Shown: positions 2,878 to 51,700, numbered from the stretch's first letter. The stretch is DNA of 64,000 bases from Patescibacteria group bacterium (GCA_041649655.1 JBAZMO010000001.1:173-64172), one strand, 5' to 3'. A program made the numbers and translations. Notes: generated by a model not told the origin, from the letters alone.

Positions 2878-2881
2878 TCCT

Positions 2882-4522
2882 ATGAATCTATTTTCCATAC
2901 CCCCATTAGCAAGTTCAGTGTTGTTTTTGCTTTTGGGGTTTTTTATTTTTTTAAGCAATAAGAAATCAAAGTTGAATCTGACGTTTTTTTTGGTCTGTCT
3001 GTCGACTTTTTGGTGGCAATTCAGTTGGTTTGTTTTGTTCAATACTGAGAATAGAAATTTAGTCGATATTATCGTCAAGGTTGGCTATATCGGCATAATT
3101 TTCATTCCGGTATTTTTTTATCATTTTTTTGTCTTATTTCTGGAAGATAATAATAAACTCGATAAGGTTTTGTTGAAAGCTGCTTATTTAATATCATTTA
3201 TTTTTCAATTGTGCCTAGTCGCCGGCAGTTGCTTCGTGAGCGGTTCTTATTTGTATTTTTTTGGTTATTACCCCCAAGCCGGCTTTGTGCATTTGATTTA
3301 CTTGTTATTTTTAGCTCTGATTCTGTTCAGGATAATTTATATTTTATCTTCTTACCTGAAGAAAAACGTTTCCAATAAGAATCTAAAGTATCATCAAATA
3401 AAATATTTGTTGCCCAGCATGGTTTTCTATGCCTCGGCCAGCGTCGATTTCAGCGCTAATTATGGCCTGGGGATTTATCCTTTTGGTTTTGTTTTTATTG
3501 TTATTTTTTCGTTAATTATAGCTTATTCTATTATTAAGTTGCAGTTACTAGATGCTAAGGCGATTGCCACTGAGATATTTGCTGTGTTTTTAACCTTAGT
3601 TTCTTTTGTCGAAGTATTTTCAGCCGGCTCTACTACGGCATTGATTTATCGCTTGATAATTTTTCTTATCACCCTGATCTTCGCCATCCTCCTGATCCGT
3701 TCCGTCTTGCAGGAAGTCCGCCGGCGCGAGGAGATGGAAGTCCTTAATAAGAAACTGAGCAAGGTTTCCAAGGAATTGGCTTCGGCCAACAAAGAACTGC
3801 GGCGCTTGGACGAATCCAAGTCGGAATTCATGTCGATTTCTTCCCATCAATTGCGCACACCTCTGACGATTATCAAGGGCTATTCATCGATGCTATTGGA
3901 AGGCAATTTCGGCAAATTATCCGCTCCGGTCAAAGACAGCATCAATAAGATTTTCATTTCCACCGAACGTCTGATCAATCTGGTCGAGAGCTTGCTTAAT
4001 ATCTCCCGCATTGAAGCCGGCCGGATCGACTTCAAGATCGAGCCGGTCGATTTGAGCGAGGTGACCAAATTGATGGTTAATGATTTCCAAGCCAAAGCTA
4101 AAGCGAAGAAACTAAAATTGGAATTCGTCGAGGATAAGAGCGTCCCCAAGGTGGCCGCTGACGCGCAAAAGATTAAAGACATTGTTTCCAACTTGATTGA
4201 CAACTCGATCAAGTATACCAAGCAGGGCGAAATCATGATCAACCTCCATCAGGAAGGCCAATCAGTGGTTTTTGCCTCCCAGGATACCGGCATCGGCATT
4301 GATCCGGAGGATTTGTCCCGGTTATTCAATAAATTCACTCGAGGCAAGGATTCGGCCAAGGTTAATACGGAGGGCACGGGCTTGGGCTTGTATTACGCCC
4401 GAGTTTTGATTGAGAACATGGGTGGCCGCATCTGGGTAGAATCGCCGGGCAAGAATCAGGGCAGCAAGTTTTCTTTCTCTTTGCCGTTGGCGGATAAGAA
4501 AATGGCGAAGAAAATTAGGTAG
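2882..4522 (+). CDS. membrane sensor histidine kinase
   Basis: Multi-TM N-terminal half. Coiled-coil linker. HisKA H-box SHQLRTPLT. HATPase_c N, G1 and G2 boxes (NLIDNSIKYT, DTGIGI, GTGLGL). Confidence 0.85.
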   Translation: MNLFSIPPLASSVLFLLLGFFIFLSNKKSKLNLTFFLVCLSTFWWQFSWFVLFNTENRNLVDIIVKVGYIGIIFIPVFFYHFFVLFLEDNNKLDKVLLKAAYLISFIFQLCLVAGSCFVSGSYLYFFGYYPQAGFVHLIYLLFLALILFRIIYILSSYLKKNVSNKNLKYHQIKYLLPSMVFYASASVDFSANYGLGIYPFGFVFIVIFSLIIAYSIIKLQLLDAKAIATEIFAVFLTLVSFVEVFSAGSTTALIYRLIIFLITLIFAILLIRSVLQEVRRREEMEVLNKKLSKVSKELASANKELRRLDESKSEFMSISSHQLRTPLTIIKGYSSMLLEGNFGKLSAPVKDSINKIFISTERLINLVESLLNISRIEAGRIDFKIEPVDLSEVTKLMVNDFQAKAKAKKLKLEFVEDKSVPKVAADAQKIKDIVSNLIDNSIKYTKQGEIMINLHQEGQSVVFASQDTGIGIDPEDLSRLFNKFTRGKDSAKVNTEGTGLGLYYARVLIENMGGRIWVESPGKNQGSKFSFSLPLADKKMAKKIR

Positions 4523-23953: not shown

Positions 23954-26857
23954 ATGACATACAAGGAGTTCTTGAATGATGGAGGAGAGAAGAAGTGGCA
24001 GGATCAATGGCTGAACACAAAAATTGATCGAGCCGATGACTTCAGTTCCAAGCCCAAGAAATATGTGCTGGATATGTTCCCGTATCCGTCCGGCGCGGGC
24101 TTGCATGTCGGCCATCCGGAGGGTTATGCGGCGACTGATATTTATTCTCGTTATTGGCGGCTGAAGGGATTCAATGTCCTGCATCCGATGGGCTGGGACG
24201 CTTTCGGTTTGCCGGCGGAAAATTACGCCATCAAAACCGGCACCCAGCCGCAATTGACCACTGATAATAATGTCGCCACTTTTAAACGCCAAATTCAGTC
24301 GCTTGGCTTTTCTTATGATTGGGATCGGGAAATCAATACCACTGATCCGAAATATTATAAATGGACGCAATGGATTTTTTTGCAATTGTTCAAAAAAGGC
24401 CTGGCTTATGAGGCGACCGTGCCGATTAATTTTTGTCCGTCATGTTTGACTGGTTTGGCTAATGAAGAAGTCAAAGACGGCAAATGCGATCGCTGCGGCA
24501 CGTCGGTCGAGAAGAAGGATTTGCGCCAATGGATGTTGAAGATTACCGCTTATGCCGACAGGTTGTTGGAAGGGGTTGATAAGCTGGATTGGCCGGAGTC
24601 GATCAAGGCCCTGCAGCGGAATTGGATCGGCCGATCGGAGGGAGCAACGGTGAAATTTCCAATTTCCAATTTCCAATTTCCAATTGAGGTTTATACTACT
24701 CGCCCCGACACTCTTTTTGGCGCGACCTATATGGTTTTGTCCCCTGAACATAATCTTTTGGATGAATTGAAACCTAGAATTACTAATTGGGAAGAGGTTC
24801 AGGATTATATCGCTAAAGCCAAGAATAAATCCGATCTGGAACGGACAGAACTTAATAAGGATAAGACCGGCGTTGAGCTGAAGGGCATTAAGGCGATTAA
24901 TCCGGTCAACGGCCAGGAGATCCCGATCTGGATTTCCGATTATGTGCTGGCGTCTTACGGCACCGGCGCGATCATGGCGGTGCCAGCTCATGATGAGCGT
25001 GATTTTGAATTCGCGAAGAAGTTCGGTTTGCCGATCATCGAGGTGATTATTCCGGAAAGGATTGATAAAAGGAATCCGCCCGTAGCCGGCAAAGAAAAGG
25101 TTGAGAGAAAAAATGTCCAAGTCATTGTTCGCAATCCTCGGACGGGAAAAATTCTTTGCCTTCATTCCCATAAATACGGCTGGGTCACTTTTCCAATGGG
25201 CGGCGTCGGGACTGATGAAGATCTGTTGGCTGCCGCTAAGCGCGAGGTGATAGAAGAAACCGGTTATCGGAATTTAATTAATGGCGAAGTGCTCGGCGGG
25301 CAAGTTCGCGCTGAATATTTCGCTAATCATAAGGATGTTAATCGAGTTTCTTTCACTAACTTAGTTCGATTTGATTTGGCTGATGAAGAACAGATCGGAA
25401 TTTCTGAGGAGGAAAAAATAGCCGAGAATGAAATCCTTTGGAAAAATCCGGAAGAATTAACGTTGGATTTCATGGTTCATGCGGAAATGGATGTTTGGCT
25501 GGAACGGATTAAAAAAGGCGATATCGCTTATACGGACGTCGATAATGGTGTCATGATCAATTCGGAATTTTTGAACGGCCTTGTGCCGGCTGAAGCAATC
25601 GGCAAGATGATCGACTGGCTGGAAGAAAAAGGTGTCGGCCATAAAGCGATCAATTACAAATTGCGCGATTGGGTTTTTTCTCGCCAAAGATATTGGGGCG
25701 AACCGATCCCGCTGGTGCACTGCGAGAAGTGCGGTCCGCCAGCTGGCGGATGTGCCATTCCGCTAAATGAAAAGGATTTGCCATTAACACTGCCCCAAGT
25801 GGAAAAATACGAGCCGACCGGCACCGGCGAATCGCCGCTCGCGACAATCGATGAGTGGGTCAATACGATTTGCCCGAAATGCGGCGGTCCGGCTAAGCGC
25901 GAGACCAACACAATGCCGCAATGGGCAGGCAGTTCTTGGTATTGGCTCAGGTATATTGATCCGCATAATGATGAGGCCTTTGCCGATCAGGATAAATTGA
26001 AATACTGGCTGCCGGTCGATTTGTATTTGGGCGGAGCTGAGCATGCGGTTTTGCATTTGCTTTATGCTCGTTTTTGGAATATGGTTTTGTTTGATCTGGG
26101 CGTTGTGCCGCAAGAAGAGCCGTTTGCTAAGTTGATTAATCAGGGTTTGATTCTGGGCGAAGACGGCGAGAAGATGTCGAAGTCGCGCGGCAATGTGGTC
26201 AATCCCGATGAAATCGTCAAGGACTTCGGCGCCGACACTTTCCGTTTATATGAGATGTTTATGGGGCCATTGGAAGCGATGAAGCCCTGGAGCACCAAGA
26301 ATATTCTGGGCGTCCATCGGTTTTTGAATAGGGTTTGGGAGTTAGTTCCCCTCCTTTCCAGGGAGGGGCTAGGGGAGGTTTCGGAAGGGAATGACAAGGC
26401 AGAATTAGAAATTTTATTTAATAAGACCATTAAAAAAGTCGGCGAGGATATTGAGGCGATGAGTTATAATACGGCTATTTCAGCGCTGATGGTTCTGGTC
26501 AATAAATTCCAGTCGGCTGGTGGTATTAATCAAGAGCAATTAGAAAAATTTTTAATCATCCTGTCGCCGTTCGCGCCGCATTTGGCAGAAGAATTGTGGG
26601 GAAAGTTAGGCCAGGTGGAAAGTATTTTTAAAGAAAAGTGGCCGGAGTATGATGCAAGCAAAGTCATTGACACGGAAATTGAAATGCCGGTGCAGATCAA
26701 TGGCAAAGTACGGGCTAAATTGAAATTGCCGGCCAATATTAGTGAAACTGAGGCGAAAGCAGCTGCTCTTAGTGATGAGAATGTCAAAAAATATCTGGTT
26801 GGCGAACCAAAGAAGATTATTTTCATTAAAGGCAAGTTGATCAGTATCGTGGTTTAG
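23954..26857 (+). CDS. leuS: leucyl-tRNA synthetase carrying an internal Nudix hydrolase domain
   Basis: [20 protein letters not shown] motif, CP1 editing domain, KMSKSRGN, C-terminal KGKLISIVV. About 130 extra aa between the post-editing [19 protein letters not shown] block and [12 protein letters not shown] contain a full Nudix fold. Confidence 0.95.
24654..24684 (+). repeat. (AATTTCC)n heptamer tandem repeat inside leuS, encoding FPISNFQFP
   Basis: AAATTTCCAATTTCCAATTTCCAATTTCCAA, identical to the ileS copy. Confidence 0.8.
25115..25525 (+). other. Nudix hydrolase domain embedded in LeuRS (Nudix box at about 25198..25266)
   Basis: [51 protein letters not shown] is a perfect GX5EX7REUXEEXGU Nudix box, with the preceding beta-strands typical of the fold. 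E. coli LeuRS has only about 45 aa in the corresponding segment. Confidence 0.75.
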
Positions 26858-27885: not shown

Positions 27886-29523
27886 TTAATGAAAGATCAA
27901 TTCGATCACATCGTCTTTTTTGAGGCGGCTTTGAGTGAAATTGGCGATTAGAGTGCCGTTAATAATGACGCTGACTTTTTCGGCCATATAACCGCAGTTA
28001 TCCAGCCAGTCGGCAATCGATGTTTCACCGGCAATGATTAGGCGTTTGCCTTGGCAGGGAACCAGAGTAATCGAACTGGCTACTAACAATTGTTTGACTA
28101 ATTCTTTCAATTCATTGATCGCGCGGACTCCGGCCTCTCGAATGAATTCCTTTTTGATCACTAAGTCGTAGATGTTGCTAATTAACTTAGCAAGTTCTCG
28201 GAGTAGCGGATCAGGCGTTTTATCGGGGTGGACGAGTTTTTGCCAAATGTGGAAACCGCGTTGAAGCTCTTTAGTCGGCGGGTCGGCTTGGCCGCACAAG
28301 ATATGGCAGAGCCATTCGCGGCAGTAACTGTCGTATTGGTTGATTTTGAAGATATCGATCTCATTTTTTTCAAAAATCGTCTGCAGGCGGGCCAGCGGAT
28401 TTTGGCCGTCGCCCTCAGGCATCTTGACTTTCGGTTGAGGCGTGGCTTTTTCCATTGGCGTTTGCTGTTGGATCGCCGGCTCCTTGAGTGTCGCCGGTTC
28501 AGTGTCCGCCGAAGCCGATCGAAAGTATTCCCAATCCAGACCATCGAACAATTTGGGATTAACTTGGCATAATTCGGCGATCCCGGCCGTTACCGACGGC
28601 CGCAAGCCCGGGGATTGCTTGACCGCTTCAGCCAGGATATTGCCAAAAGTTGATTTGATTGGGTCTGACAGCCGATCCGGTTTCTTGAAGATCTTGATGA
28701 CTTTTTCCGCCGCTTTTTTTCCGGCTCGGGCTTCCGGCGGCAGATTATTGTTGAATAGCAACCGTATGATTGTGAATAGTTGGCCTAGGGCTTCAGTCAT
28801 CTTCCCGGTTTGGCTGGCTGTTTGAAGTGAGGCAGCGACTGCGAATCCATTGGCGGTCAAACTGTTCAAGTTGGAAGCGATGATCTCTTGGGCAAAAATA
28901 TGTCCGGGATATTCCGGCTTGGTTTCAGTTATGGATTTGGCGCCGGATTTTTTGCTTTTCGAGCCATCGCTTGGCCCGGTTAAGAGTAGTCGGCCCTGGC
29001 TCGTTTCCGGCAGGGACAACCGGGCTTGGCCGGTCGTTTGATCGTGCGCAATCAAGCCGGTCGGCTCGCCGGTCCAGAACGATCTGACTTTCTTAATGAC
29101 CGAAACCGGCAATTCCTCGTCGACTCGTTTGGCTAAATGAGGGTTAACTTCGAACAGGATGGAAATGATCGTTTCCTTGTCTTCCGGATGAAGATGAAGA
29201 TGGATCCGGTAGAGCATCGATTGGACGGCGCGGATCATTATTTCTCGGCCGTCCTCCGAGCCGAAGCAATTATTGATTCGCCGCAGCGTTTCGTGCTGCG
29301 CGGTTCGATCCTGCGTCATTAGCCAGGTGAGAAGGCCGTAAAGATAGGCGCAATGAATGTCATCTTTGGTTATCGCCCAGCATCTTGCTGCCGTCGAATT
29401 GCGGACATTGATGAAAACCAACTGCCAAAATTGATGGACAGCTGCTTTGATCAAGCGCTGATCATTGAAACGTTCATTATCCGGTGGCAGGACGCCTAAG
29501 CCAGCCAGTTGTTTCTTAGACAT
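27886..29523 (-). CDS. hypothetical protein with a beta-grasp-like C-terminus
   Basis: Start assigned to ATG at 29523 with a strong RBS GGAAGGAGGACGACTT. Promoter on the minus strand: TTGACA (29629..29624), 17 nt, TACAAT (29606..29601). Confidence 0.55.
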   Translation of the reverse strand: MSKKQLAGLGVLPPDNERFNDQRLIKAAVHQFWQLVFINVRNSTAARCWAITKDDIHCAYLYGLLTWLMTQDRTAQHETLRRINNCFGSEDGREIMIRAVQSMLYRIHLHLHPEDKETIISILFEVNPHLAKRVDEELPVSVIKKVRSFWTGEPTGLIAHDQTTGQARLSLPETSQGRLLLTGPSDGSKSKKSGAKSITETKPEYPGHIFAQEIIASNLNSLTANGFAVAASLQTASQTGKMTEALGQLFTIIRLLFNNNLPPEARAGKKAAEKVIKIFKKPDRLSDPIKSTFGNILAEAVKQSPGLRPSVTAGIAELCQVNPKLFDGLDWEYFRSASADTEPATLKEPAIQQQTPMEKATPQPKVKMPEGDGQNPLARLQTIFEKNEIDIFKINQYDSYCREWLCHILCGQADPPTKELQRGFHIWQKLVHPDKTPDPLLRELAKLISNIYDLVIKKEFIREAGVRAINELKELVKQLLVASSITLVPCQGKRLIIAGETSIADWLDNCGYMAEKVSVIINGTLIANFTQSRLKKDDVIELIFH

Positions 29524-29651
29524 AAGTCGTCCTCCTTCCAGTCCGGTGTTGGGCTTTTTTGCTTTTATTCCTAATTTCATTGTCAATGAGCTGATAGTTT
29601 ATTGTAGGCCGCTTATTAATTATTGTCAAGTGTTTTTAAGGTTTTTTAGAA

Positions 29652-29684
29652 AACAAAAAATACCCATTGCTTTGCAGCAAGGGC
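29652..29684 (-). terminator. rho-independent terminator of the GC-rich three-gene operon
   Basis: Minus-strand hairpin CCCTTGCTGCAAAGCAATGGG followed by TTTTTTGTTTT. Confidence 0.55.
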
Positions 29685-29706
29685 GTGATGGTAAAAGTGC
29701 GGGTTC

Positions 29707-29904
29707 TTAGTATTCCCAGCCCCGTCCGATTAGGCCGCGCTGGGCATACCAGGCCTTCAGGGGCAGGTAGGGGAAGCGTCGCTCAAACTCGGCTCGGGAC
29801 AACCCCTCGACCAATCCTTGCCGCTTAACGCCTTCGTGGCGACGACGCAGGTGGTCGCGGGATCGATTGAGCCGGCGGGTTTCAGCTCGTCGGAGCTTAC
29901 TCAT
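29707..29904 (-). CDS. small basic protein (65 aa), third gene of a coupled operon
   Basis: MSKLRRAETRRLNRSRDHLRRRHEGVKRQGL...; its ATG overlaps the upstream stop as ATGA; GC about 60%. Confidence 0.45.
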   Translation of the reverse strand: MSKLRRAETRRLNRSRDHLRRRHEGVKRQGLVEGLSRAEFERRFPYLPLKAWYAQRGLIGRGWEY

Positions 29905-30062
29905 GAGTCGCCTTTCTGCCAAGCCCGCTTGGCTTGTTTGCGGTCATAGCCGCGTTTGCCTCTTGGCGAAGAGTGGACTTTTTCCGTCTGCCGCGGGAAA
30001 GCGCGACGGACTTTCTTGTCCAACTCGCGCAAGTTTATTGTACCGATATGGATGGTGCTCAT
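29901..30062 (-). CDS. small basic protein (53 aa), second gene of a coupled operon
   Basis: MSTIHIGTINLRELDKKVRRAFPRQTEKVHSSPRGKRGYDRKQAKRAWQKGDS; RBS GGAGAGAA; ATGA start/stop overlap with both neighbours. Confidence 0.45.
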   Translation of the reverse strand: MSTIHIGTINLRELDKKVRRAFPRQTEKVHSSPRGKRGYDRKQAKRAWQKGDS

Positions 30063-30349
30063 GTCGTTCTCTCCTTTTGCTCGAGATCCTGTTTGATCCC
30101 GAGCAGTTGCGGACACTGCTTGACCCAGAAGTCCTGCACTTGCCGTTCGGTCCGCTTGGCGGTCCATTCGGCTTTCAGCTCCGGACTCGGGATAAGCGCG
30201 GCCTTCAGTTCGGCCGGGGCGGAAGCGATCAGTTGGCCGCCGCAGGGCTTATGCACCCTGGCGACCTTGTCGTCGGCCGTCCGTACTAGCCACCGCGCGC
30301 CGTTGTTGCCGACTGTGCCGCAAAACTCGCATGTGTGTTTCTCGCTCAT
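30059..30349 (-). CDS. small zinc-ribbon-like protein (96 aa), first gene of a coupled operon
   Basis: MSEKHTCEFCG...HKPCGG cysteine pairs. Confidence 0.5.
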   Translation of the reverse strand: MSEKHTCEFCGTVGNNGARWLVRTADDKVARVHKPCGGQLIASAPAELKAALIPSPELKAEWTAKRTERQVQDFWVKQCPQLLGIKQDLEQKERTT

Positions 30350-30398
30350 GATTCTCTTCTCCTTGTGGTTGGGGTTGCAGTTTGAATGTCCGCTTCAA

Positions 30399-30417
30399 TG
30401 AACAAGTAATTTGTTCA
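30399..30417. promoter_or_regulatory. palindromic operator-like site upstream of the GC-rich operon
   Basis: TGAACAA-gtaat-TTGTTCA perfect 7-5-7 inverted repeat, about 50 nt upstream of the first gene. Confidence 0.35.
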
Positions 30418-31419
30418 CTCAAGTGGACTGCCGATTTTTTCATTTTTAGGGAAATCGGCGGAAACCTTTTTGACAGTGGAGCGGGATTTAAGCTGGCTTT
30501 TTTGCCAACCGGCCGAGCTAGTTCAGGATCGTTCCCGATACCGCCAGGCCTCTAATATCCCCGCTCCTGGGCTCGTCCAAGCCCGCCTCTTTTTCGAGGT
30601 ATAAGGCGATTTTTTCGCCCTCAGTCGAGATGTCCGACCGCGTGTTGCCGCTGTCACGGCTCACAACCGACTTTCTTGCAGGCGTTCTCGCCAGACAAGG
30701 GACTAGGTATAGTCGCAGTGGGAACCAACGCCTCTTCAGCGTTGCTTCCCGGGCGTGCTAGCACCCGTTCAGCCGTCCTCTAGCAAGGATGGTTGTCTCT
30801 CATGCAAGTTGCCCAGATTTCCGCTCGGGTCTCGCATAAGATTAGACGCGCTCCATCTGTGCGTTCCCGCAGAGATGAAGTGTTGGCAGCCAAGCCAAAC
30901 GTGCCCGGATGCCTGCGCGCATCTGCACCGGAATGTTTTCCAATCGTTTGAAAAATAATCCGGCGCAGACGCGCATCATTAGTAATCCATTATAAGGTGC
31001 CAGTCGAGATATATTACTTTTAACTTTGACCTGTTATCAATTACTTTTTTTTGGCACGACAAGTGTTGTTGCGAGTTAACACTATTAACGTCAATTAATC
31101 TTTCCGACAGCCGGGAAAAGTGGATTTTTTTCACCCCAACCGCTAAGGGCAGGGCAGAGTCCGCGAGGGACTGATCCGCTGTTTTCCAGTTAAACCGGGT
31201 TTTAGCCGGTTTTTTTGGCTAAATCGCCGTTAGCGGGCGATCGGCCAAATTCAGCTTTCAACTCTGGGTTTGTACTTGTCGGAAAGTTTTGACATTGGTT
31301 TTACCAGGTTGATAAATCAGTATATCACACGGAAATTATTTTGTCAATAGTCATTATAATTAATTATTATTTTTGTTATTATTTTAGCTAAATTTAAACA
31401 AAATAAATCATAATAATTC

Positions 31420-31437
31420 TGTCAATCATAATTGACA
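31420..31437. promoter_or_regulatory. inverted repeat TGTCAAT-cata-ATTGACA
   Basis: Perfect 7-4-7 palindrome in an AT-rich intergenic region. Confidence 0.3.
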
Positions 31438-31454
31438 ATTTGTTATTTTCCGAC

Positions 31455-31476
31455 CATGATTCATGATTCATGATTC
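31455..31476 (+). repeat. (CATGATT)3 heptamer tandem repeat
   Basis: CATGATTCATGATTCATGATTC; related TGAATCATGA motifs recur at 38874..38903. Confidence 0.7.
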
Positions 31477-31524
31477 TAAATTCATAATTCTAGCCCGCCT
31501 GTGGATAACTTTTGTTTATGCCTC

Positions 31525-31553
31525 TTGACAAAATTTATTGGGTATGCTATACT
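31525..31553 (+). promoter_or_regulatory. near-consensus sigma70 promoter
   Basis: TTGACA - 17 nt - TATACT with TGn-like upstream GC (GGTATGCTATACT). Confidence 0.6.
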
Positions 31554-31618
31554 GTTATATTGAGTCAAAAGCCGCATTGGGCGGCTGGCGATCAATGGAC
31601 ATTCAAAGGGAGAACGAA

Positions 31619-31816
31619 ATGTCGAAAAAAGCAAAATACGTGGTTGCAGTTAAAGATATTTCCACGGGGAAGATTCTTCCTGGCAAAGTTCTGGGGAGTT
31701 TTCGAGCCGAGGAATTTGCTCGACGCGATTTTTCAAAACTCGCTCAACGCGAATGCGGTTGGGCTCGCACCTATCATTGCGGTATTTTTTTTGAGGGTAA
31801 AATTGTTAGTTTCTAG
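31619..31816 (+). CDS. small hypothetical protein (66 aa)
   Basis: RBS AAAGGGAGA 6 nt upstream of the ATG; MSKKAKYVVAVKDISTGKILPGKVLGSFRAEEFARRDFSKLAQRECGWARTYHCGIFFEGKIVSF. Confidence 0.45.
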   Translation: MSKKAKYVVAVKDISTGKILPGKVLGSFRAEEFARRDFSKLAQRECGWARTYHCGIFFEGKIVSF

Positions 31817-32164
31817 TAAACCTCAACCGGTTTCTGCCGACGGCAAGGCGTCCTGAGGCAAATAGAAGCCACAACCTCAGAAAGGAGGCGGCTATGGGCA
31901 GCGGTTGACTCCAAACCCACCCTTCGCCATATTCCGGTTCTAACCTGGATATGGCGCGTGTCGGGCTCGGAGTAATCGCCGGTTCCATAGTTGTCAGCAC
32001 CGCTGCGACAGAAAGGAGAAGTATGGACGGAGTAGGATGAACTAGGTGAAAGACCTCTCATTATTAAAAAAAACGGAAAAGAGGTCGGGTAGGCCGCCAT
32101 CACCGATGGGCAGAATAAGCCAGTCCGGCGAGCGGCGAAACAAAAAAGAACATTGTTGATTCCT

Positions 32165-32208
32165 GGGGCGTTATCCGGCAGTTGCGGAGACGCCCCCTTT
32201 TTTTAAAA
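32165..32208 (+). terminator. rho-independent terminator closing the 31.5-32.2 kb transcription unit
   Basis: GGGGCG...CGCCCC stem followed by TTTTTTT. Confidence 0.5.
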
Positions 32209-32250
32209 ACCAATTTGAGTTATAATAGTAGGGACATTAACTATCATCCT

Positions 32251-33012
32251 ATGTTAATCAATGAATTGAAAAAAATCGGCTTGTCCGACAAAGAAGCCAA
32301 AGTTTATTTGGCGGCTTTGGAATTGGGCCAGGCCTCGGTCCATGACATTGCCGGCAAGGCGGGCATCAACCGTCCGACCGCTTATACGATTCTGGATTCG
32401 TTGATCAAGAAGGGTTTATGCAGCACTTATGCCGGCAAGGATAAGAAGATCCGCTACATCGCCGAGTCGCCGGAAATGATCATCAGCGTTTTGGAATTGC
32501 AGAAGCAGGAGATCGAGGCCAAGCAGAAGATGATCGATGAACTGATGCCGCAACTGCGCGCCATTTATAATCGCCAGGAGCACAAGCCGGTGGTCAGATT
32601 TTTCGAAGGCAAGGAGGGCTTGCGGGCCATGACCCAGGAGCAGATGCCGGCCAAGCCGCAATTAATCCGGTCGTTTTTTTCATTAGACGATTTGAGGCGG
32701 GTTTATTCCAAGGAAGAGGTAGACCAGGCCTATCAGAATCGGGTGAATAATAAGACCAAAGTCAAGGCCATGTTCACTTTGAAAGAAGGCGAGGATCGCT
32801 CTCGGCCCAGTCCGTTGGACGAACGCCAGCGTTTGCCGGCTGATCGTTTTCCCATCAATTGCGATGTCGCTTTTTTCGACAATAAAGTCCGCATTGCCTC
32901 GCTTAAAGACCGTTTGAACGGCGTAATCATCGAAGACAAGAATATTTACGAGACGATGGTTTCCTTGTTCGAATTGGCTTGGCTGGGCGCGCAGAGTTTG
33001 AAGAAGAAATAA
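32251..33012 (+). CDS. TrmB-like winged-helix transcriptional regulator
   Basis: N-terminal HTH LSDKEAKVYLAALELGQASVHDIAGKAGINRPTAYTILDSLIKKGL. ATG at 32251. -10 TATAAT at 32219. Confidence 0.7.
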   Translation: MLINELKKIGLSDKEAKVYLAALELGQASVHDIAGKAGINRPTAYTILDSLIKKGLCSTYAGKDKKIRYIAESPEMIISVLELQKQEIEAKQKMIDELMPQLRAIYNRQEHKPVVRFFEGKEGLRAMTQEQMPAKPQLIRSFFSLDDLRRVYSKEEVDQAYQNRVNNKTKVKAMFTLKEGEDRSRPSPLDERQRLPADRFPINCDVAFFDNKVRIASLKDRLNGVIIEDKNIYETMVSLFELAWLGAQSLKKK

Positions 33013-42500: not shown

Positions 42501-42710
42501 GTTACCTCGACTAATCCGTCTTCTTATGGCTATTTGCTTTGCAAAGATATTGACGGAGCGGTTTTGTGCGCCAGTGACAAAAAATGCAAGGCCCATGTTG
42601 CTACTTCCACAAATTCTGTTTTGAATGGCAGTTGGATTATTACCAAGGATAAATCCATCACTGATTTTACTACCGGAGAAACCGGCTGCTGCTTTGGCAA
42701 GTGTTTTTAA
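39504..42710 (+). CDS. giant secreted/surface protein 1 (1068 aa) with conserved N-terminal helical-hairpin membrane module
   Basis: Signal peptide then two TM helices around the invariant MYGGFIWMTAAGEPDKVTKAK. Gly-rich linker. Long Ser/Thr/Asn/Gly-rich beta-type extracellular region. C-terminal Cys cluster CCFGKCF. Confidence 0.7.
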   Translation: MIKRQIVSNQRSFFKNARAATIGSLAFFIALFLMPALAWAAGDIPTLSGVVEGTGLPMVNLTVFLLAILRIFFGLLGVLAIALLMYGGFIWMTAAGEPDKVTKAKQIIYNTIIGLIVIFSAFAITSFLMAWLNGLGGGGDGGGTTRIPGGNGDWGRSAIGAGPIQSVYPAPNAVNVPINTRIAVTFKVNIDPSSICELVAGETYCNGGLMKNVTICAISSTSSDCLPDPEFNANVYADTKVYQATSSDQRTFIFSTNNYLGLDDNQVRIFKVHLGADIEAAATNESVFANLRYPDYAWAFKTNGVLDFSPPEVARMEIYPNPDNTPDTYNVGAQSTVGSASITASITPRLETPPTIQGRPFTGTPLVDISLTEDLDNDPIIPDDYLKLGTSGFSVTSTNSVKKISFQISPAGEYIEFDISPDAASILGVTFSRTGVCANKERCLLVDDNKRVTLTGSGLTIASTGNFSEARGSKWSFTVSPAVNGDEVILANGTNKINFIFADTSLPAKITKRSVASDGRTIVNTDYFTVKSAATSTAGYLKGLNDALIAHAGNFVTSTVATNKIIVTPKAAGANSLSLTTNSSALAIDGNLSGEARVTARTPLPPGSKGDAYNNSVFRVSFTEAISPINIEQHVIIKINGDIVTASTTLTNQYRTLEFLGTKPCGVNSCGKQMYCWLDPNSADVSLPASIEIVAAGLKTCVGTNDDWCVKFGGTCQVGVDGGRCQLTNGLHYPQADVSADGVTDMANNSFNGNFNKSENNKGVMVGNAEGRSGTGAGRSGQPAYNANSITTPIHFDGLVTSFANDGDANGDNFSWSFFVSTQIDRAAPLIAKILPTGDSSHGIGLDQTFRDPVTLVFNGLMRLATLQPGWGYGEREADPRWHTRYLILKTITAGANPIGYWVSALNLDEGDFSTEAGRGDGLADYTEARINHSAYDQAVNYGPLAGNGIESITQNCLLPGNGPIDAGATGDNKCVYNSDGSGNTSGCVTDLDIDSNRRVTSTNPSSYGYLLCKDIDGAVLCASDKKCKAHVATSTNSVLNGSWIITKDKSITDFTTGETGCCFGKCF

Positions 42711-42744
42711 GTTATACAATACAAAAAGAAATTTTAATTCTTCA

Positions 42745-45700
42745 ATGTTAGTTCGAACAAAAAAAACACTTTTAGTCATTCTTGTAATTCTGGCGGCAGC
42801 GACTTTAGCGTTGCCGGCGGCGGTTTTGGCTGCGGGCGAAGTCCCGTCGATCGGCTTATTCGGCAGTATTTTCGGCACAGCGACTTTGGCGCAGATCATT
42901 ATTCGGATCATTCAGCTGTTTATGGCGCTTCTCGGCGTCATTGTTGTGGTATTTTTGATGTATGGCGGCTTTATTTGGATGACGGCCTCAGGCGATCCGG
43001 ACAAAGTCACCAAGGCCAAGCGTATCATCTTGCAGGCGATTATCGGCTTGGTTATAATTTTTTCGGCTTTTGCCATCTCCGCTTTCATTTTTGATCGTTT
43101 CGGCCCGCCGGACGGCGGTTCTCCGACTGAGCCCTGCGAAACTGTCGGAGAAACCGACAATTGTTCGGTCGGCGGCTGCACCGGTTTGCGGACTTGTCTG
43201 GAAGGCAATATCTGGGGTCCATGCCAATTCGATCCTAATTGCGATCCGATCAATCCTCCTTATAACCTAATTCCGCCGGTCATCACTTATATTGACCCGG
43301 CTTGGGACGTTAATGGCGATACTGATCCGAGCAATATCACGGAGGCCTCTACGGCTGATGACATTTCCAATGGTGCTCCGGGCAATGCCATCAGTATTTT
43401 CGGCCGTTATTTCGGCCAAGTCAGGGGCAAGGTTTATTTTGTCAGAAATAGTGACAATATTAGAACCGAGGCCGACATTGCCGATTGTTTCGGCGCTTGG
43501 ACTAGCAATCAGATCATTGTCGTGGTGCCGGACGGTTTGGATCAAATGGATATCAGCTCGGAAACGGCCATCGTCAATGCCAGTCCGCTCAGGAATTACA
43601 ATGTAATTGTCGAGAAAAATTCGACCGGGGCGACGTCTTTGGTCTCCAATGACTGGGGGTTTCAAGTCAATAAAATCGAACGGCCGGGGATTTGTTCTAT
43701 GGTTCCCAAGAGTGGCGCCTATCCGGCGACGACGACGATTGTCGGTTGGAGATTTCCCAGCGCTTCGCCGCAGAATGTTTTGTGGTCGCTGTCGCCTTAT
43801 CATGCAACATCAAGCGCTAGTGCTTGGACCGTCAGTTCGACGATCGATACCGTGCCGCAGGATTTAAGCGGCCGCGCTCTGGTAAATATTTTTAATGGCG
43901 TTGTCAAGAGTAATTCATATTTGTTCATGGTTTCTCGAGGCCGATTGGATGATCCTTGCGGCTATGATAATCGTTCATGCGACGAGGATATTAATACTTG
44001 CGGCCAAGATGAGGGCGTAGTTTTGGCCTGCCAATTCTGTTCTGATGATCCGGCTAATGATGATCATTATCAAGCCGGCTGTGATTTGTCGAAGAATTGC
44101 ACTTGCCAAATCAACTCGAAAGACGCCTGCGTTTATAATTCTGATCAGTTGCAAAATGATAAGCAGGCCTGCTTTATTGGCGGTTGCGCCGGCTTTAAAT
44201 ATTGCACTGATAGAGGTGTTTGGAGTAGCACTTGTGTGCCATCAGCAGTCGATTGCGTGCCATATCTGGGCAATCGTTCCGGCATCGCCTCATTTTCTTG
44301 GGCTTTTAACGCTTTGAAACGGCCGATAGCCGGCATGAGCTGTAAGTCGGATATTTGGAGCGATGATACTTGCGATCTTAACGGCTGTTTTGACGCCAAT
44401 CTCGGCTGTGATACTTCTCAAACGACTGAAGAGTGGGTTGAGATTTATAATCCGACCGATAGTGCGATTGATATCAGTGATTTAAGAATCAGCTATATTG
44501 ATGATTATTTCGGCACTGAAGAAAAAACCTTTTTTTCTTTTTCTAATCCGACTGGCAAATTTATCGGCGGCAAGAGTTACATGGCCCTAAGGAACACCGG
44601 AGCCCGTTTGCCGAATATTTCTGGAAAAATAATTTTAAATAATAATTTCAGCCAAGTTGATATTGTTGAGTATGGCAATAATGATTTATCGGCGGCTTTT
44701 TCGCCCGCTTCTTTTGGTCGGAAAATAGACGGTTTGGATACCGGCAACGCGTCTGATTTTGTTTATTTTCCTAATTCGAGCGGCGATTTTCCTAACAATA
44801 CGGCCAGTTCGACGATCGGTGATCATTTGGTTATAAATGAGGTTTCTTTGGCTCATGATGCCTGTACTTGCGTGCCGAAGTCGCAATTATGCGCCCCTGG
44901 CGAAGTTGATGCCCAGACCTGCGATCCGGTCGGGCAGTGCCGGCAGGCGAGGACCTGTTCGGCCGACGGCCATTGGGGCGCTTGCGTTCAAAGCGATCCC
45001 AATTGCATTCCTTATCCGCTTGTGCCGGCCTCGACTATCGCTTCTTACAGCTGGTCGTTCGGCGCGAATGCCGGGCTCTCTGGCGCCGGTCCGATGGTGG
45101 TTAAGTCGTGCGACGGTTCGGTCGATTGCAGCCGAAACAGTTTGCCCAGCCCTTCGCCCTGGGAAGAGTGGACGCCGGAAAATTCCAATGTGGAAAATCA
45201 AGCCAGTATCGATGCCTGTTTGAATGCCACGATTTTTGCGCGTTTTACACAAACGATGGATCAAGCGACTTTGAATACGGAGAATATTAAATTGTATAAA
45301 TATAATAATAGTAACGCAACTTGGGAAGATAATCGCTTAATTGATGATATTGAATCATTACCATTAAGTGACAGTGGTGTAGATTCTTTCAATTTAAAGC
45401 TTAATCAGAATTTAATTTCAAGTACCACTTATCGTGTTTATTTAAGCAAGTCGATTCGTGATGGATTGGGGCGCAATTTGATTGATACTCCTAATGGTCC
45501 GCGGCAGGAATTATGCGGCGGTGTCGGCGATGGCAATGGCGTCTGCTGGAGTTTTAAAACTCGCGCAGCCAGCGATCCTAATAAGATGTGCGAAGTCGGC
45601 TGCGTCAATTGCGGTCCGGACAAGTACTTCAATCGTTATTACGGCCAAAAGAAACAGCACGCCGCTTATCCGATCAGCATTGATAATTCTTGCATTGTGC

Positions 45701-48700
45701 TGGATGCTACGAATTATGAATGGGACTGGACGGTCGAGCAGCAAACCACTGGTAACAGTAATAATCGCGGTTGGGAAATCATGCGGACTATGGCGAGCGC
45801 CTATTCATGGCTGTTGGATCCAATCAGCCAGTTGGCTCTGACGGCAACTGATGGCATTTTACATCAGATAAGCGGCACAGTCATATCTGGCAAAGCGACG
45901 ACGACGGCGCAGTTGGAAACACGCTGGCGCACTAATTCCAATTATTCCGCTTGGTTCGAAGGCGATGATTTTGATTTTTTTGCAGTTAGGTCTAAGGAGG
46001 CCGCGACTCAAAATTCGGGAATCTGCCGGGCGCATAACAATTTTACCGATCCAGTGGTGATTGAAAGCCAATACTGCACCAAGAGTGATACTGAGGGTGA
46101 TGCTGACAGCGATAATTGGTCCAAGCAGGTCTTGCAAAGCCCGAGTCCCTGGAAGGGGCAAACTGATGCCTGCACTAATGGCGTTATCTTCGTGCTGTTT
46201 TCCCGTAATATGATGAATGGAAGTTTATTGAACGGCGGCCTAATTAAAAATTTTGAAATTTATAAGTGCGACAATGCCGCAGCCGCTACTTCTTCTGATT
46301 TCAGCAGTTATAATGATGATTGCGAACTTCAGCCGGCTTGGCAGGCTAAAGTTTTCAATTATACTCATCAAAATATCACCTTGCAGGAGTTAATGGCCGC
46401 TGCTGACAGCGTCCAAGGATCTACAACTCCGGAGGGAATCCGGATTTATCCTCCGAATAAATTAGCGTCCAACACTTGGTATAAAGTCCTTATTAGGGGC
46501 GGCGAGAACGGGGTGCGCGGAGGAAATTCTGATTCCAATGAGCAATCCGAGGGTGTTTTGCAAGTCCCCAATCCCAATGCCAGGATAATCAACGGTGCGG
46601 AAACTTGGTATTATTGGTATTTCAAGACAGGCGCCGGCGATTGCCCGATCGATCAGGTGGCGGTCTTGCCGCAAATCAAGTTTATGCCGGTAGTCGGAGA
46701 GTCCCAGGATTATTTAGCCGACCCGTATGCTGCCAATTGCAACCATCTTAATTCTAATAATTATGTTTGGCAGTGGGATTCTTTGATCAATCCCTTTGTC
46801 GACCGTTGTCCGAACGGCAATAATTCGGGCGATTATGTCGCTTCTATTCTTTCGACCACTTCAGACGAAACGATAGCGACTTCCAGAAGCGAGGGTAATA
46901 CTAAGATCACGGCCGCCGCCGAGCAGGGCGAGTGCGAAGCTAATAAATGGGGCGCCGGCGAATTGCAGGTCGGTTATGGCGGATTCAAGGTGTCTTCTTA
47001 TGACAACACCAATTGCTTGAACACTGATATTAATATCAATTTTTCTCAAGAGGCCAAAAGCGATACTCTTAAGAATAATATTGAGCTTTACCGATGCGGT
47101 AATTCTGATTGCCGTTTTGATGATTTACAGAACTTGCAGATTACTATAAGAAATCCGCAAGGCCTTTATGAAGATCCTATCAAACCAGATCCTTTTTATT
47201 CCAATTCGGTTTATCTGGTGCCGAATATCAATCTGACTCCGGGCGCAACTTATCGAGTGGTGGTTAAGGGAGGTGATACCGGCGTTAAGTCATTTGCTAA
47301 CTCCTCATTATTGGATTTGAATTATAATTCTGAGGCCAAAGCCGGTGGTGAAGTTTGCGATCCGGGGCTTTATCCTTGGCGGTCGGGCGATCCGTTTGTC
47401 GGATTATGCAGTAATGCCTGCAAGCTCATCGGCAACTTATGCGGCACGCCACTGGCGGAATGCCAGCCGGCTGATTTATTGTGCGATGACAACTGCCACA
47501 AAGTCGGCAATAGCAATACTTCGGCCAGTTGCGGTAATAATAAGATCGATCCCGGCGAGCAATGCGACGACGGCAATACCAGAGATGGCGATAGTTGCAG
47601 CTCGTTATGCTTGCTCGAAGGCAGCAACACCAGATACGGCTCGCTATGTGGCAACGGCAAGATAGAAAAAGGCGAGCAATGCGACGACGGCAATATCGTA
47701 GATAATGATGGCTGCAGTTCCGAATGTTTGCTGGGGGTAGAGGGCGTCACTACTAACATTTTATTTAATACCAGTTTTGAAGAAGACGACATACGTACTG
47801 GTGCGTTGAAAAATTGGTCTACATATTCACAAAAGCATTCTAAAGTGGAAGTTACATCAGTTGAGTATCAATCAGGAGCTCGAAGCGTTTTAATATTGCA
47901 GGAATCTAATCAAGTATTTCCCGGTACTTGTACGGAGGCGATTTGTAATGACTTGAGTCCAGCCCTCCCAACTAATATCGGTTGCACTTGGTTGAGTGCT
48001 ACCAATCAGTGTAGTTTTAATCAGCAGGATAGTGCGCATCTTGGCAACTCCAATCCCATTTATAATTTTGGCAACACTCTATATGCACCAAATAACCATG
48101 CGGTGGTGTGGGGTGCTCTTTCTTATAATGTATCTTCGCCCGGCTTTGTGGTAGGTCAGAAGTATACTGTTAAATTTTGGTACAAGGGAATAGTTGATAA
48201 GAATAGCACTACTAGTTTGGTTTTTGGTTATAACCCTGGCAATCTTAGTCAATGCAACTCGACTAGCACATTAAATTTGAAAGATGACCCAAGTAATCCT
48301 GGCAATGAAATTTGTAAAACTGGTAAATTTTGTTCTGACGATCCTAGTCATTGCTGTTTTCAGGCGCCTTACCAAACTAAATGTTATAGCGGCATATCTA
48401 AAACAGCGATTAATCCCGGTACTTATGATGATTGGCAGCCACATACGACCGAATTTATTTACACTTCGGAATTAGCCAGCTTGCGAGATAGTGCCGGCAG
48501 ATTATTAAATGTGATAGCCCTAGTTATTCCTAATGCGCCAACAACTGATAGTGGTACCAGGCTTTATATTGATGATTTTTCGGTCGAGCAAGTCGGTTCT
48601 GTCTCTGACGCGCCGATTTGCGGCAATGGCAAGATTGAAGCCGGTGAGCAATGCGATGATGGCGCTGATAATGCGGTTGATAGTTCGTCTCTTAATCGTT

Positions 48701-51700
48701 GCACCTCCAATTGTCTTTTAAGCGGCGCGAATGCTACGAGCACAGGCGGCACTTGCGGTGACCGCAAATTACAGAATGGCCAATTTGACAGTTACTCTTG
48801 GACTTTCAATCTTGATGACAATGTCAGAGTTTGCCAAGCTGTCAGAGCCGATCTCAATCCTTGCCCTAATGGTGTTTGGTCGGTCAGCGCTGATGCCAGT
48901 GTCAGCAGTTTTGATATCTTGTTTTATCGTGGGTTTGAAGGCAATAATAAACCTGCGTCTAATTGCATTTCTGACGCAGAGATGCGGCAATACGGCTTTT
49001 GGCGGCGGATGTTTAATGAATTAGCCAAGATAGTTAAAAGTTTCTTCGGTTTCCATTCGGCTTTGGCGGCCGATTGGTGGTGTACGATGAATAATTCTAA
49101 TGACAGTAAATTTTCAGCTGAAGATTTGCAAAAAATGAGCTTGGGTAATTTCAAGCGTGATATTTTGCTGGACGGGGTGTCGACTGAGATCATCGGTTAT
49201 ACTGATGATAATGACGGTTATAAAGTTAATTTTATCCGTAAAAATAACTATCAGCCGAACACCCAGTATAAGGCGGTGGTGAATTATGTCCGCAATGGCG
49301 TCAGCAATATCCGGACTTCCGATGTGACGACTTACTCCTCAAGCTGCCGAATGGACAGCGTTAAATTCGATGTCTGGCCGCGCGGCGCGGCTAAGAATTC
49401 GGATGCGTTTTTCTGCGCTTCTGATCCGGTTGCCGGCAAGTTGGACGAGTGCGGCCGTTTCAGCGATGATCCTTATGACGACGATATGTCGGCGGCTTGG
49501 ACCATGAATCAACTGGATAACGGCTATAACTTGAACAGCAATGGCGATGCTCAAACCGCTATTAATAATCCCAATTACAAGCCGGGCAATAATCATCTTT
49601 ATCGCGTCTGGCCGCTTGATCAAGACGGGCATGTTTTGCGCGGCATTAATTTTGAGCAGAATGTGGCCAATGTCGGCGCTCTGGTCAATCAGTCGGCTTT
49701 AGGCAGCACTGGTTATGCCGGCGATTTCTGGCTGACTTCGGGGCCAACCCAGGGCCGATCTCTTTTTAACGTCAAGATCAGTGATTTGAATGATGCCGGC
49801 GCCGGCAGCGTCAGCGGCAGTTTGCCGATTTATACTTTTTTCTGCAAGAATCCCTGGCCGTCCCCCAATGATTTCCCGTTTGTTGATAGTAACGCAAATT
49901 GTCCAACTGGCACTTGTATTAATACTAATTTCGCCGCTTACTATTGCCGCGATGCCGGACTGGACAGCACGACGGCTGATGATTTGCCGTCGATCGGCAG
50001 GATAAATTCCGGGGTGGCGGTCATCGGCTCTGAAGCTTGCCCAACCACTGATCCGTGCGACAATAAGATTAAGGAGTTCTTATTCAGCGGTTCGGCTGCC
50101 GGCATAGCGACCTCCAGCAATACCATCGGCTTGAGGATTTACAACAATAATAATCATTATTCGCCGACTTTGTGGTATCAATCGCGATTCAATCCCGCTT
50201 CCCAAAGCAATTTGTCGAAATTAAGCGTCGACGGCTATAGCGCCAGCCGAGAAGGCCGGACGACTTATATTAATGCGGCTGATTTTAAAGATGGCCAGGA
50301 CAAGGTTTATTCCGACATATTTATTTTGTCTTATGACCAGAACGCCGGCGAAGCGGTTAAGAATATTTATGACCAACTCTTAGCCAACTGGTTTTTCAAT
50401 GCCGGCTCCTTGTCAGTCGGCGGCTTGGAATATTATGAAGCCCTTGGTTTTTGCAGTGAAGGCAGCCAGGCCGATCAAGATAACAGATGCTTCAGCGATG
50501 TCGATTGCTTGAAACGCGGCGCCGGTTATTGTAAGTCGGAAAAAGCCAAGATCACCCGCGATACTCAGCGCTTGGCTGATGTCCAGGATATTTACAAGGA
50601 GTTGGCTGGTTATTATGGCCGCTTACGCTGTTCTAATGATTTCAATCGTGTTTGCCGGTCCAATGCCGACTGTTACGGCGGCGGAGCTTGCGGTAATTTC
50701 TATCCTAATTTGCGCGCCGGCACTTACCTGACCGGCAAAACCTTCAGTGTTTGGCCGAGCTGGCAGGATAACCTGGGCAAGGACTTGGGAACCGCTTTGC
50801 CAGTTGATCCGATTAATAAATTGTGGGCTTGGTATGGTAAGTCAGTTGATTGCTCTAATCCTTATAATCCCGTCACTTGTTGGGACCAGACCGGCAAAAA
50901 AATGGAGTCGAATCTTGATTGGAATTCTGCCGTCTATGCTTATTACGGCACTAAAGCCGGCACTTCGACTAAGATTTATATCAAGGGTGAAAAGGACTCG
51001 ACCGGTTCGATTTGGCATGAAGATTGGGTTTCGTTGGCGACTTGGGGTTATAACCCTTTCAGTGGTTATGTAGTTGGTGGTTTTCATTCAATAGTCAGCG
51101 ACAGTTGCGGCAATAATGTTTGTGATAATTCTGCCGGTGAGACCTGCTCTAGTTGTCCTTTGGATTGTGCTTGCTTAATTGGCAAATCTTGCCAAAAAAT
51201 TTCTAGTGTTTGGCAATGCGCGACATCGACATTACCGATTGCTGCATCCGCGACCTGCGGCAATGGGATTATAAATCATAGTATTAATTATATGACTGGA
51301 GCGAATATCGGAGAAGAGTGTGATTTTATTAATGGCGTGCCGAATTGTCCTAGTCCAAATGAGCTATTTGGGAATCCTAATATTATAAAACTTGTAACAT
51401 CTACTGTTCAAGGCGCTCTTTGCTGCACTGACCAATGCAAATTATCTGATTGGTATAAATCAGTTAATTCAAATCCCAGATGTGGCGACGGCTTAAGGAC
51501 TGACCAGGAAGAATGTGATTGTGGAACGGTTGGTTATACGCCAGCAAAATATAATCCCTTTGTCTGTAATAATCTAAATTATAATCCGATAACTACATAT
51601 TTAGAACCGCCAGCTAGGCCGGTTGATAAGCCATATTGCGACACTAATTGTTTTCTTCACATTAATACTGATTACAGGTTTTGCGGTGATGGTTTAAAGA

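Follow-up and report, generated by a model that had tools for sequence, protein, structure and literature searches.

Here we describe a conserved RNA encoded immediately upstream of a TrmB-like helix-turn-helix (HTH) regulator gene in a Patescibacteria group bacterium (GCA_041649655.1 JBAZMO010000001.1:173-64172). The whole stretch analysed, 64,000 nucleotides (nt) long, is called the window, and its numbering is used throughout. The conserved unit is an RNA that runs from a near-consensus promoter to a strong, unconditional terminator; the open reading frame (ORF) of 65 amino acids (aa) that it carries in the window is not part of that unit. Its core of ~180 nt (31869-32046) consists, in the predicted fold, of two ribosome-loading sites that flank a stable rod, with a T-loop at the tip of the rod and the first of two minute ORFs in its base. 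The most distinctive feature is a pair of extended Shine-Dalgarno (SD) sequences, each with an ORF of 3-6 codons (mini-ORFs 1 and 2), which was absent from an initial annotation that had proposed a small RNA (sRNA) or dual-function RNA at this locus. We put the chance at about even that this is a structured RNA with swappable cargo that acts by engaging ribosomes at its twin SD/mini-ORF sites.

Twin SD sequences, mini-ORFs and the predicted rod

Homologues were found in 10 related Patescibacteria loci, and looser versions in 5 more distant loci. Close relatives L001 and L002, taken from loci with TrmB orthologues, share DNA similarity with the window over 31865-32050 and not over the 65-aa ORF (blastn, nhmmer). 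Scanning metagenomes with a motif taken from the conserved part led to L076, from the same species as L001, and to L077; further TrmB orthologues gave the RNA in L078, L080, L081, L082, L085, L086 and L090. A covariance model run over the 1.25 Mb of fetched sequence matched these 11 loci only; a weak nhmmer match in L026 was rejected as FtsH coding sequence. The distant versions recur without detectable sequence similarity, next to TrmB-like proteins that are only 34-57% identical. They share a layout of consensus promoter, leader hairpin, stable domain with an SD and tiny ORF at its base, second SD and tiny ORF, terminator and TrmB gene. In every locus found, the RNA lies immediately upstream of the TrmB-like gene on the same strand.

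The promoter, the long hairpin and the terminator of the initial annotation are present where it had placed them (Table 1), and they are above chance in that all three recur in every homologous locus. The motif TTGACAAA...TGCTATA(C/A)T is kept in all homologous loci, and within the surrounding 4 kb there are 9 promoter-like sites, compared with 3.4 +/- 2.1 after shuffling. Relatives have an equivalent terminator, and the sequence AAGAACATT just before it is invariant in the window, L001 and L002. Rfam gave 0 matches at gathering thresholds over the whole window, and only chance miRNA-type matches over 29400-32400 in E-value mode (E up to 10). ARAGORN found no tRNA or tmRNA, and literature searches for related descriptions found none. 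By these searches, the element is a new RNA family, uncatalogued in Rfam. We rejected a mobile or phage origin, as blastn against phage and plasmid collections and two viral-contig pattern scans gave no match; PHROGs and PADLOC searches on the neighbours returned nothing specific.

All loci carry (G)AAAGGAG(G) at the first SD. The SD sequences are 9-10 nt long; across loci, the SD core spans 6-10 nt and the start codon follows it by 3-10 nt. Every mini-ORF (32/32, from 16 loci: 11 near and 5 distant) closes after 3-6 codons in frame 0, and frames +1 and +2 from the same start are usually far longer, often 10-40 or more codons. The starts switch between AUG and GUG among loci, all three stop codons occur, and the start-to-start distance from mini-ORF 1 to mini-ORF 2 is 97-172 nt (16/16 loci). 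Among close relatives, changes within mini-ORF 1 are synonymous or exchange one stop for another. The distant mini-ORFs read MGS-stop and MGGL-stop in L007, where the GUUCGAUUC loop is kept, MCD-stop and VFD-stop in L028, and MND-stop and MGD(Y)-stop in L087, L089 and L091. Both strands of the window hold 18 comparably strong SD-plus-start sites; only 4 of these have an ORF of <=6 codons, and 2 of those 4 are the twin mini-ORFs, whose SDs are stronger than those of the real ORFs carried as cargo. The extended SD AGAAAGGAGG occurs twice, its complementarity being assumed from the general bacterial 16S tail rather than the organism's own. Programmed frameshifting on mini-ORF 1 was dropped because 1-nt indels that distinguish the window from L001/L002 interrupt the long +1 frame after its start codon (AUG1).

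Table 1. Positions of features at the RNA locus (MFE, minimum free energy)
Feature	Position	Strand	Details
Perfect DnaA-box sequence	31500..31508	+	TGTGGATAA; 16 nt upstream of the -35 hexamer
Sigma-70 promoter, extended -10	31525..31553	+	TTGACA-17-TGcTATACT, score 11/12; -35 TTGACA 31525-31530, 17-nt spacer, TG 31545-31546, -10 TATACT 31548-31553; predicted start near 31560
5' leader hairpin	31570-31586	+	AGCCGC-ATTGG-GCGGCT; followed by GGACATTCAAA motif, 31597-31607
Cassette slot	31596..31871	+	65-aa ORF 31619-31816 (ribosome-binding site AAAGGGAG) plus its 3' flank
CCACAACC motif and first extended SD	31869..31888, SD 31879-31888	+	SD AGAAAGGAGG; invariant in close relatives
Rod domain, long irregular hairpin	31889..31995	+	MFE -50.6 kcal/mol, z = -5.5
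Mini-ORF 1	31894..31908	+	ATG GGC AGC GGT TGA (MGSG-stop); 13/15 nt paired in rod
Apical hairpin with tRNA-type T-loop	31925..31956	+	CGCCATA(T)TCCGG-TTCTAAC-CTGGA-TATGGCG; loop TTCTAAC 31938-31944
Second SD	32010-32018	+	AGAAAGGAG; all 16 loci have a second SD
Mini-ORF 2	32023-32040	+	ATG GAC GGA GTA GGA TGA (MDGVG-stop)
Variable 3' region	32041..32164	+	hairpin GACCTCT/AGAGGTC, 32052-32086, seen in MFE fold
Intrinsic terminator	32165..32204	+	GGGGCGT 32165-32171, ACGCCCC 32190-32196, T7 32198-32204
TrmB-like HTH regulator gene	32251-33012	+	Pfam TrmB, E = 8e-15; constant downstream neighbour, possibly the regulated gene

In the base of the rod, the 5' strand consists of the spacer after the first SD, AUG1 and mini-ORF 1. 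The topology of the rod is common to ten homologues (L082 has two T-loop hairpins at a junction), with z-scores of -3.8 to -6.8 in 9 of them and -1.7 in 1; the corresponding domains of distant L007, L028, L089 and L091 score -4.5 to -5.8. Mini-ORF 1 is paired at 60-92% in the rod base of 11 homologues, and is also paired in 4 distant versions. Relative to AUG1, pair types have changed on both sides at -4, -3, -2, -1 and +5, and the third base of codon 2 of mini-ORF 1 covaries with its pairing partner. In L080 and L081 the 5' strands of the rod are identical and the 3' strands are different, yet still complementary. These partners were read from per-sequence folds and are supportive rather than a formal covariation test. 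A column alignment of the whole rod was unreliable across the 11 homologues, as the covariance model put large insertions in divergent members, and the case for rod covariation therefore rests on the per-sequence folds together with the tested T-stem.

Covariation analysis, which the initial annotation had named as a check, was carried out on the T-loop hairpin, and its stem covaries. Twelve hairpins from 10 loci were aligned on the loop and compared with 500 shuffles and with slid controls. Paired cells amounted to 84.5% (62 +/- 3.7 in shuffles), 5/7 pairs were changed on both sides, and 22 cells were doubly changed against 8.5 +/- 2.2 after shuffling (0/500 reached 22); the slid controls were all lower. 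G52, G53, U54, A58 and C61 (tRNA numbering) are invariant, and C56 is nearly so. With a 7-nt loop closed by G53-C61, the invariant U54 and A58, the nearly invariant C56 and a covarying stem, the hairpin resembles the T-arm/T-loop modules of tRNA, the tRNA-like domain of tmRNA, YrlA, T-box and RNase P. Unlike tRNA-like elements, it has no fixed acceptor-stem length, discriminator, CCA, D arm or anticodon arm, and neither ARAGORN nor the Rfam tRNA, tmRNA and YrlA models matched it. The initial annotation had likened it to a tRNA minihelix: the hairpin is there in the window and its T-loop motif is real, but relatives do not keep a 7-bp acceptor stacked on a 5-bp T-stem with a discriminator-CCA end. 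Because the stems vary from 6 to 9 bp with varying bulges, and CGUG rather than CCA follows the helix in the window, we regard it as a T-loop module rather than a minihelix. Distant L028, L087, L089 and L091 have no T-loop. A closing helix CAACCK/MGGUUG was supported in L001, L002 and L080; its register was inconsistent elsewhere, and it is hence not claimed.

Downstream of the core, 32041-32164 is poorly alignable between relatives; the second hairpin of the initial annotation lies here (Table 1). The description of the 3' part as GC-rich holds only relatively (52-53% GC against ~47% for the window, beside a spacer of 24%), and it is not strictly free of ORFs, since ORFs of 37, 64 and 96 aa occur there, without a Pfam match and not open in relatives. 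A decayed coding gene, which would have undone the reading as an RNA, was rejected, as was an antisense one: there is no Pfam match, and in relatives every frame of both strands is interrupted.

Cargo of the cassette slot

The clearest view of the slot between leader and core comes from L077. Its identity to the window is 91.6% over 29001-31595, where homology of the 5' leader ends, and 89% over 31872-32668. Between these, the slot holds an unrelated 262 nt coding for a hydrophobic 69-aa protein (reverse complement 2813-3074). L078, L080 and L081 share this type of cargo with L077, a hydrophobic GTPQRF-motif ORF of 69-77 aa. L001 carries a basic 59-aa ORF and a hydrophobic ORF, L002 a zinc-ribbon ORF and a basic ORF, L082 a zinc-ribbon ORF, and L085 a membrane ORF together with a 63-aa homologue of the 65-aa ORF found in the window; L086 has no cargo.

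The ORF itself had been given the right coordinates and a length of 66 aa, which is 65 aa plus the stop. It is conserved as a protein, in a family of ~10 clusters of 61-86 aa (exhaustive HMMER search) with the conserved blocks VAVKD, PGKVLG and GIF.NGKLV, and is 60% identical to the 63-aa ORF of L085. A single database copy of its product is known, from an NCBI 'Patescibacteria group bacterium' metagenome-assembled genome, and its exact sequence retrieved no contig. Most RNA-bearing relatives have replaced or lack it (9/11 near-group loci). Since it is replaced in the ~90% identical L077 and absent from L086, the 65-aa ORF, although a real small protein, is optional, interchangeable cargo, outside the conserved RNA machine.

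We noted that small-ORF families shift between this operon and a divergent one to its left across genomes; they comprise the basic 'GTIH(I/V)G...GYDR..KR', zinc-ribbon, hydrophobic 'GTPQRF' and 65-aa 'VAVKD' families. Each of the two divergent operons has GGACATTCAAA ahead of its first ORF (31597-31607 on the + strand and 30391-30381 on the - strand), and C-rich junction motifs (AAACCNCAACC, CCACAA) recur before the ribosome-binding sites of cassettes. These motifs may be processing or recombination signals.

Engagement of ribosomes and alternative explanations

Engagement of ribosomes is the reading best supported by these data, because the constrained features (SD strength, spacing, starts and early stops) are those of ribosome binding. 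Two very strong ribosome-binding sites each open a frame of 3-6 codons, so the RNA probably acts through ribosomes. A 30S subunit would dock on the exposed first SD, with AUG1 and mini-ORF 1 locked in the rod base; because they sit there, ribosome occupancy and folding of the rod would exclude each other. Bound or briefly translating ribosomes could then report translation status, as in leaders with a tiny upstream ORF (uORF) such as that of vmlR. Alternatively, they could shield the RNA, together with its cargo mRNA, from 5'-exonuclease and so stabilise it, in the manner of the stabilising SD element STAB-SD. The output might be exerted in trans, or in cis by way of transcript stability or the extent of read-through into the TrmB-like gene.

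Several observations weigh against this reading. A 31-nt ribosome footprint on ORF1, ORF2 or both left the terminator probability essentially unchanged in 12/13 loci (0.9-1.0 in most; in the window the stem stays at 0.95 with a footprint on either mini-ORF), with a drop from 0.98 to 0.63 in L090 as the sole exception. Nor did the other SD or AUG become consistently more or less accessible. The equilibrium model, a constrained partition function that leaves co-transcriptional kinetics aside, therefore predicts no switch. In the mini-ORF peptides, conservation is limited to Gly at codon 2 (near group) and a final Asp (most distant loci), and their G-rich codons may partly reflect base pairing. 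SD complementarity was taken from the general bacterial CCUCCUUUCU 16S tail, the organism's own 16S 3' end lying outside the window. Lastly, the linkage to TrmB is partly an ascertainment effect, because distant loci were sought upstream of TrmB genes only. Most other TrmB loci do not have an SD/mini-ORF pair of this kind, which was seen in 5/67, against 8/275 background windows.

The leaders of lmo0919, ermC and cat belong with that of vmlR to one class of tiny-uORF attenuators. Among described layouts, that of the vmlR leader comes closest. In Bacillus subtilis its SD is single-stranded, stem-loop SL-1 encloses a 3-codon uORF (MIN), and an intrinsic terminator lies downstream (PMC9226507). 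Our RNA likewise has a single-stranded SD before a stem-loop that contains a tiny uORF with its own SD, then further hairpins and an intrinsic terminator before a gene on the same strand. It differs from vmlR in having two uORF modules rather than one, a T-loop-capped rod, a TrmB-like regulator rather than a resistance factor downstream, and possible protein-coding cassettes upstream in the same transcript. A mutually exclusive antiterminator, part of the vmlR class, is not predicted here by equilibrium folding in 12/13 loci.

This likeness raises the alternative, which we consider rather unlikely, that the RNA is a cis-acting, ribosome-dependent transcription attenuator of the TrmB-like gene (vmlR, lmo0919, ermC type), in which a ribosome stalled on a tiny uORF by a translation inhibitor or a shortage of charged tRNA would open the rod and so allow terminator read-through. 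The layout of the vmlR leader is matched point for point (PMC9226507), and in every case the TrmB-like gene follows directly in the same orientation, even at 34-57% protein identity. A -35 element that would mark a separate promoter for TrmB was not detected, which also fits, but a TAAAAT/TATAAT hexamer between the terminator T-run and the TrmB start (32205-32250) is kept in relatives at a fixed distance. It could be the -10 of the gene itself, which may have its own weak promoter overlapping the terminator. A leader of this type would, moreover, have to accommodate whole protein-coding cassettes and a variable stretch of ~100-200 nt between ORF2 and the terminator, and TrmB orthologues at 67% identity lack the RNA. 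Because footprints leave the terminator unaffected in 12/13 loci, a simple attenuator is unsupported at equilibrium.

Engagement of ribosomes can also be compared with two further systems. The STAB-SD of Bacillus thuringiensis cry3A is an SD-like sequence whose complementarity to the 3' end of 16S rRNA is extended, as is assumed for the sites described here; we take the published element to be the same nonamer, GAAAGGAGG. STAB-SD binds 30S subunits without translation and blocks 5'-3' decay by RNase J1 (PMC4113751), and hbs mRNA is a ribosome-protected transcript (PMC5737220). Whereas STAB-SD has no start codon at a working distance, each SD here has a correctly spaced AUG or GUG, 3-10 nt after its core (32/32), and a closed frame of 3-6 codons, twice per RNA. 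The second comparison is with the bar minigenes of phage lambda, in which an SD and an AUG are followed by one or a few sense codons and then a stop, on a non-protein-coding transcript. Their effects come from the handling of ribosomes and peptidyl-tRNA and not from the peptide, and are known only from hosts deficient in Pth, the peptidyl-tRNA hydrolase. The same arrangement, with up to about 5 sense codons, is found here; by contrast, bar minigenes are not known to occur as a pair or to be embedded in a conserved rod. A bolder form of ribosome engagement, which we regard as doubtful, would make this an abundant stand-alone 'twin-minigene' RNA that captures ribosomes or 30S subunits on two super-strong initiation sites on either side of a T-loop-capped rod and tunes translation capacity, tRNA pools or dormancy in trans, perhaps linked to the cell cycle by the DnaA box.

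The strong promoter, discrete terminator, ~180-nt core and rod shape would also suit a decoy that binds a protein or the polymerase, either a CsrB/RsmZ-like sponge with SD-like GGA motifs that soak up a translational repressor, or a 6S-like rod containing an internal bubble; the AUG and stop codons would then be incidental. Two purine-rich AGAAAGGAG strands flank the rod, and in some homologues the closing helix CAACCK/MGGUUG would oppose them. We think this improbable. That helix is inconsistent across homologues, the Rfam models for 6S, CsrB and Rsm gave no match even with E allowed to reach 10, and in place of many GGA loops there are only two GGA sites, neither in a hairpin loop. A decoy also leaves unexplained the AUG-to-GUG switches, the functional SD-start spacing and the 32/32 short in-frame stops.

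Less probable again is the view that the mini-ORFs are relics of the initiation regions of lost cassettes, with a core that has no ribosome-linked function and mainly assists the exchange of cassettes, as a processing site or homology arm. Cassettes do swap, and GGACATTCAAA and CTGCAACC..CCACAA recur before genuine cassette ORFs or SDs on both sides of the locus. Scars would decay, yet SD strength, spacing, starts and the 3-6-codon length are kept across lineages without sequence similarity, and the SDs of the mini-ORFs exceed those of real cassettes in strength.

A dual-function sRNA that unites the 65-aa protein with the structured 3' part in a single functional unit fits an ORF that shares one predicted transcript with the RNA and co-occurs with it in L085, but is very hard to credit: in the SR1, RNAIII and SgrS type the ORF and RNA are inherited together, whereas here the RNA is kept with the ORF replaced or absent, even in a relative ~90% identical in the flanks. 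What stands of the initial proposal is that the 3' part is a conserved structured RNA; what falls is a fixed unit of ORF and RNA.

Surroundings of the locus and significance

The window contains two perfect DnaA boxes, at 31500 and 58645. The 9-mer upstream of the RNA promoter recurs in that place in L001, L002, L077, L080, L082 and L085, and inverted in L086, which makes DnaA-dependent control of the promoter a possibility. A replication origin, suggested by the AT-rich spacer and the DnaA box, was rejected because the GC skew does not flip at the site, being positive over all 64 kb; one perfect box lies there. Each relative has a hairpin at the same position of the 5' leader with a different stem sequence; the leader may have a stabilising role. 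The spacer between the divergent promoters (31300-31500, 24% GC) contains three tandem CATGATT units (31455-31475), an inverted repeat TGTCAAT-CAT-AATTGACA (31420-31437) and palindromic A/T runs (31362-31418), which are possibly operator sites.

On the other side of the spacer, a mirror-image promoter TTGACA-17-TGaTATACT (31347-31319, - strand, 11/12) fires leftward. The transcript from it would begin with ~950 nt without an ORF (31310-30350, - strand; GC up to 60-66%), and then enter three tightly coupled small ORFs on the same strand (30349-30059, 30062-29901 and 29904-29707) for a zinc-ribbon-like protein of 96 aa, a basic protein of 53 aa and a protein of 65 aa. Blocks at 31261-31320, 31093-31137, 30901-30977 (a long hairpin) and 30350-30470 are kept in L001, L078, L080, L081 and L085. 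The ~950-nt region has no Rfam match and is a candidate for a large structured RNA or a very long leader.

The chromosomal neighbours of the RNA locus are genes for UvrA, leucyl-tRNA synthetase (LeuRS) with a NUDIX insert, the TrmB-like HTH regulator, a kinase-like protein and LytR. In LeuRS (23954-26857, +) the NUDIX domain is inserted at Pfam residues 385-516 (E = 2.6e-12); the insert is also present in relative L081, and L078 has no NUDIX match. A 566-aa ORF (27886-29586, -) adjoins the variable region and has no match in Pfam, NCBIfam or PADLOC, and L083 has a 578-aa ORF without a Pfam match near its TrmB gene. Further downstream, a 3288-aa ORF (42625-52491, +) follows a 1068-aa ORF whose L078 counterpart has a weak type IV secretion system (T4SS)-pilin match.

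The genomes of Patescibacteria (the candidate phyla radiation, CPR) are tiny and, to our knowledge, hardly any of their regulatory RNAs have been characterised. The RNA described here is conserved, apparently highly expressed and outside Rfam, and its constrained features are ribosome-binding sites and frames of 3-6 codons. The exchange of small-protein cassettes behind one strong promoter matters for the annotation of small ORFs in metagenome-assembled genomes. On a conservative reading, the RNA would be a new variant among uORF- and SD-based regulatory RNAs; a stand-alone RNA that captures ribosomes would instead be a new kind altogether. Should ribosome loading prove real, the RNA would provide a clear example from nature of paired minigenes or uORFs conserved within a structured RNA, and a possible handle on how Patescibacteria sense or limit translation.

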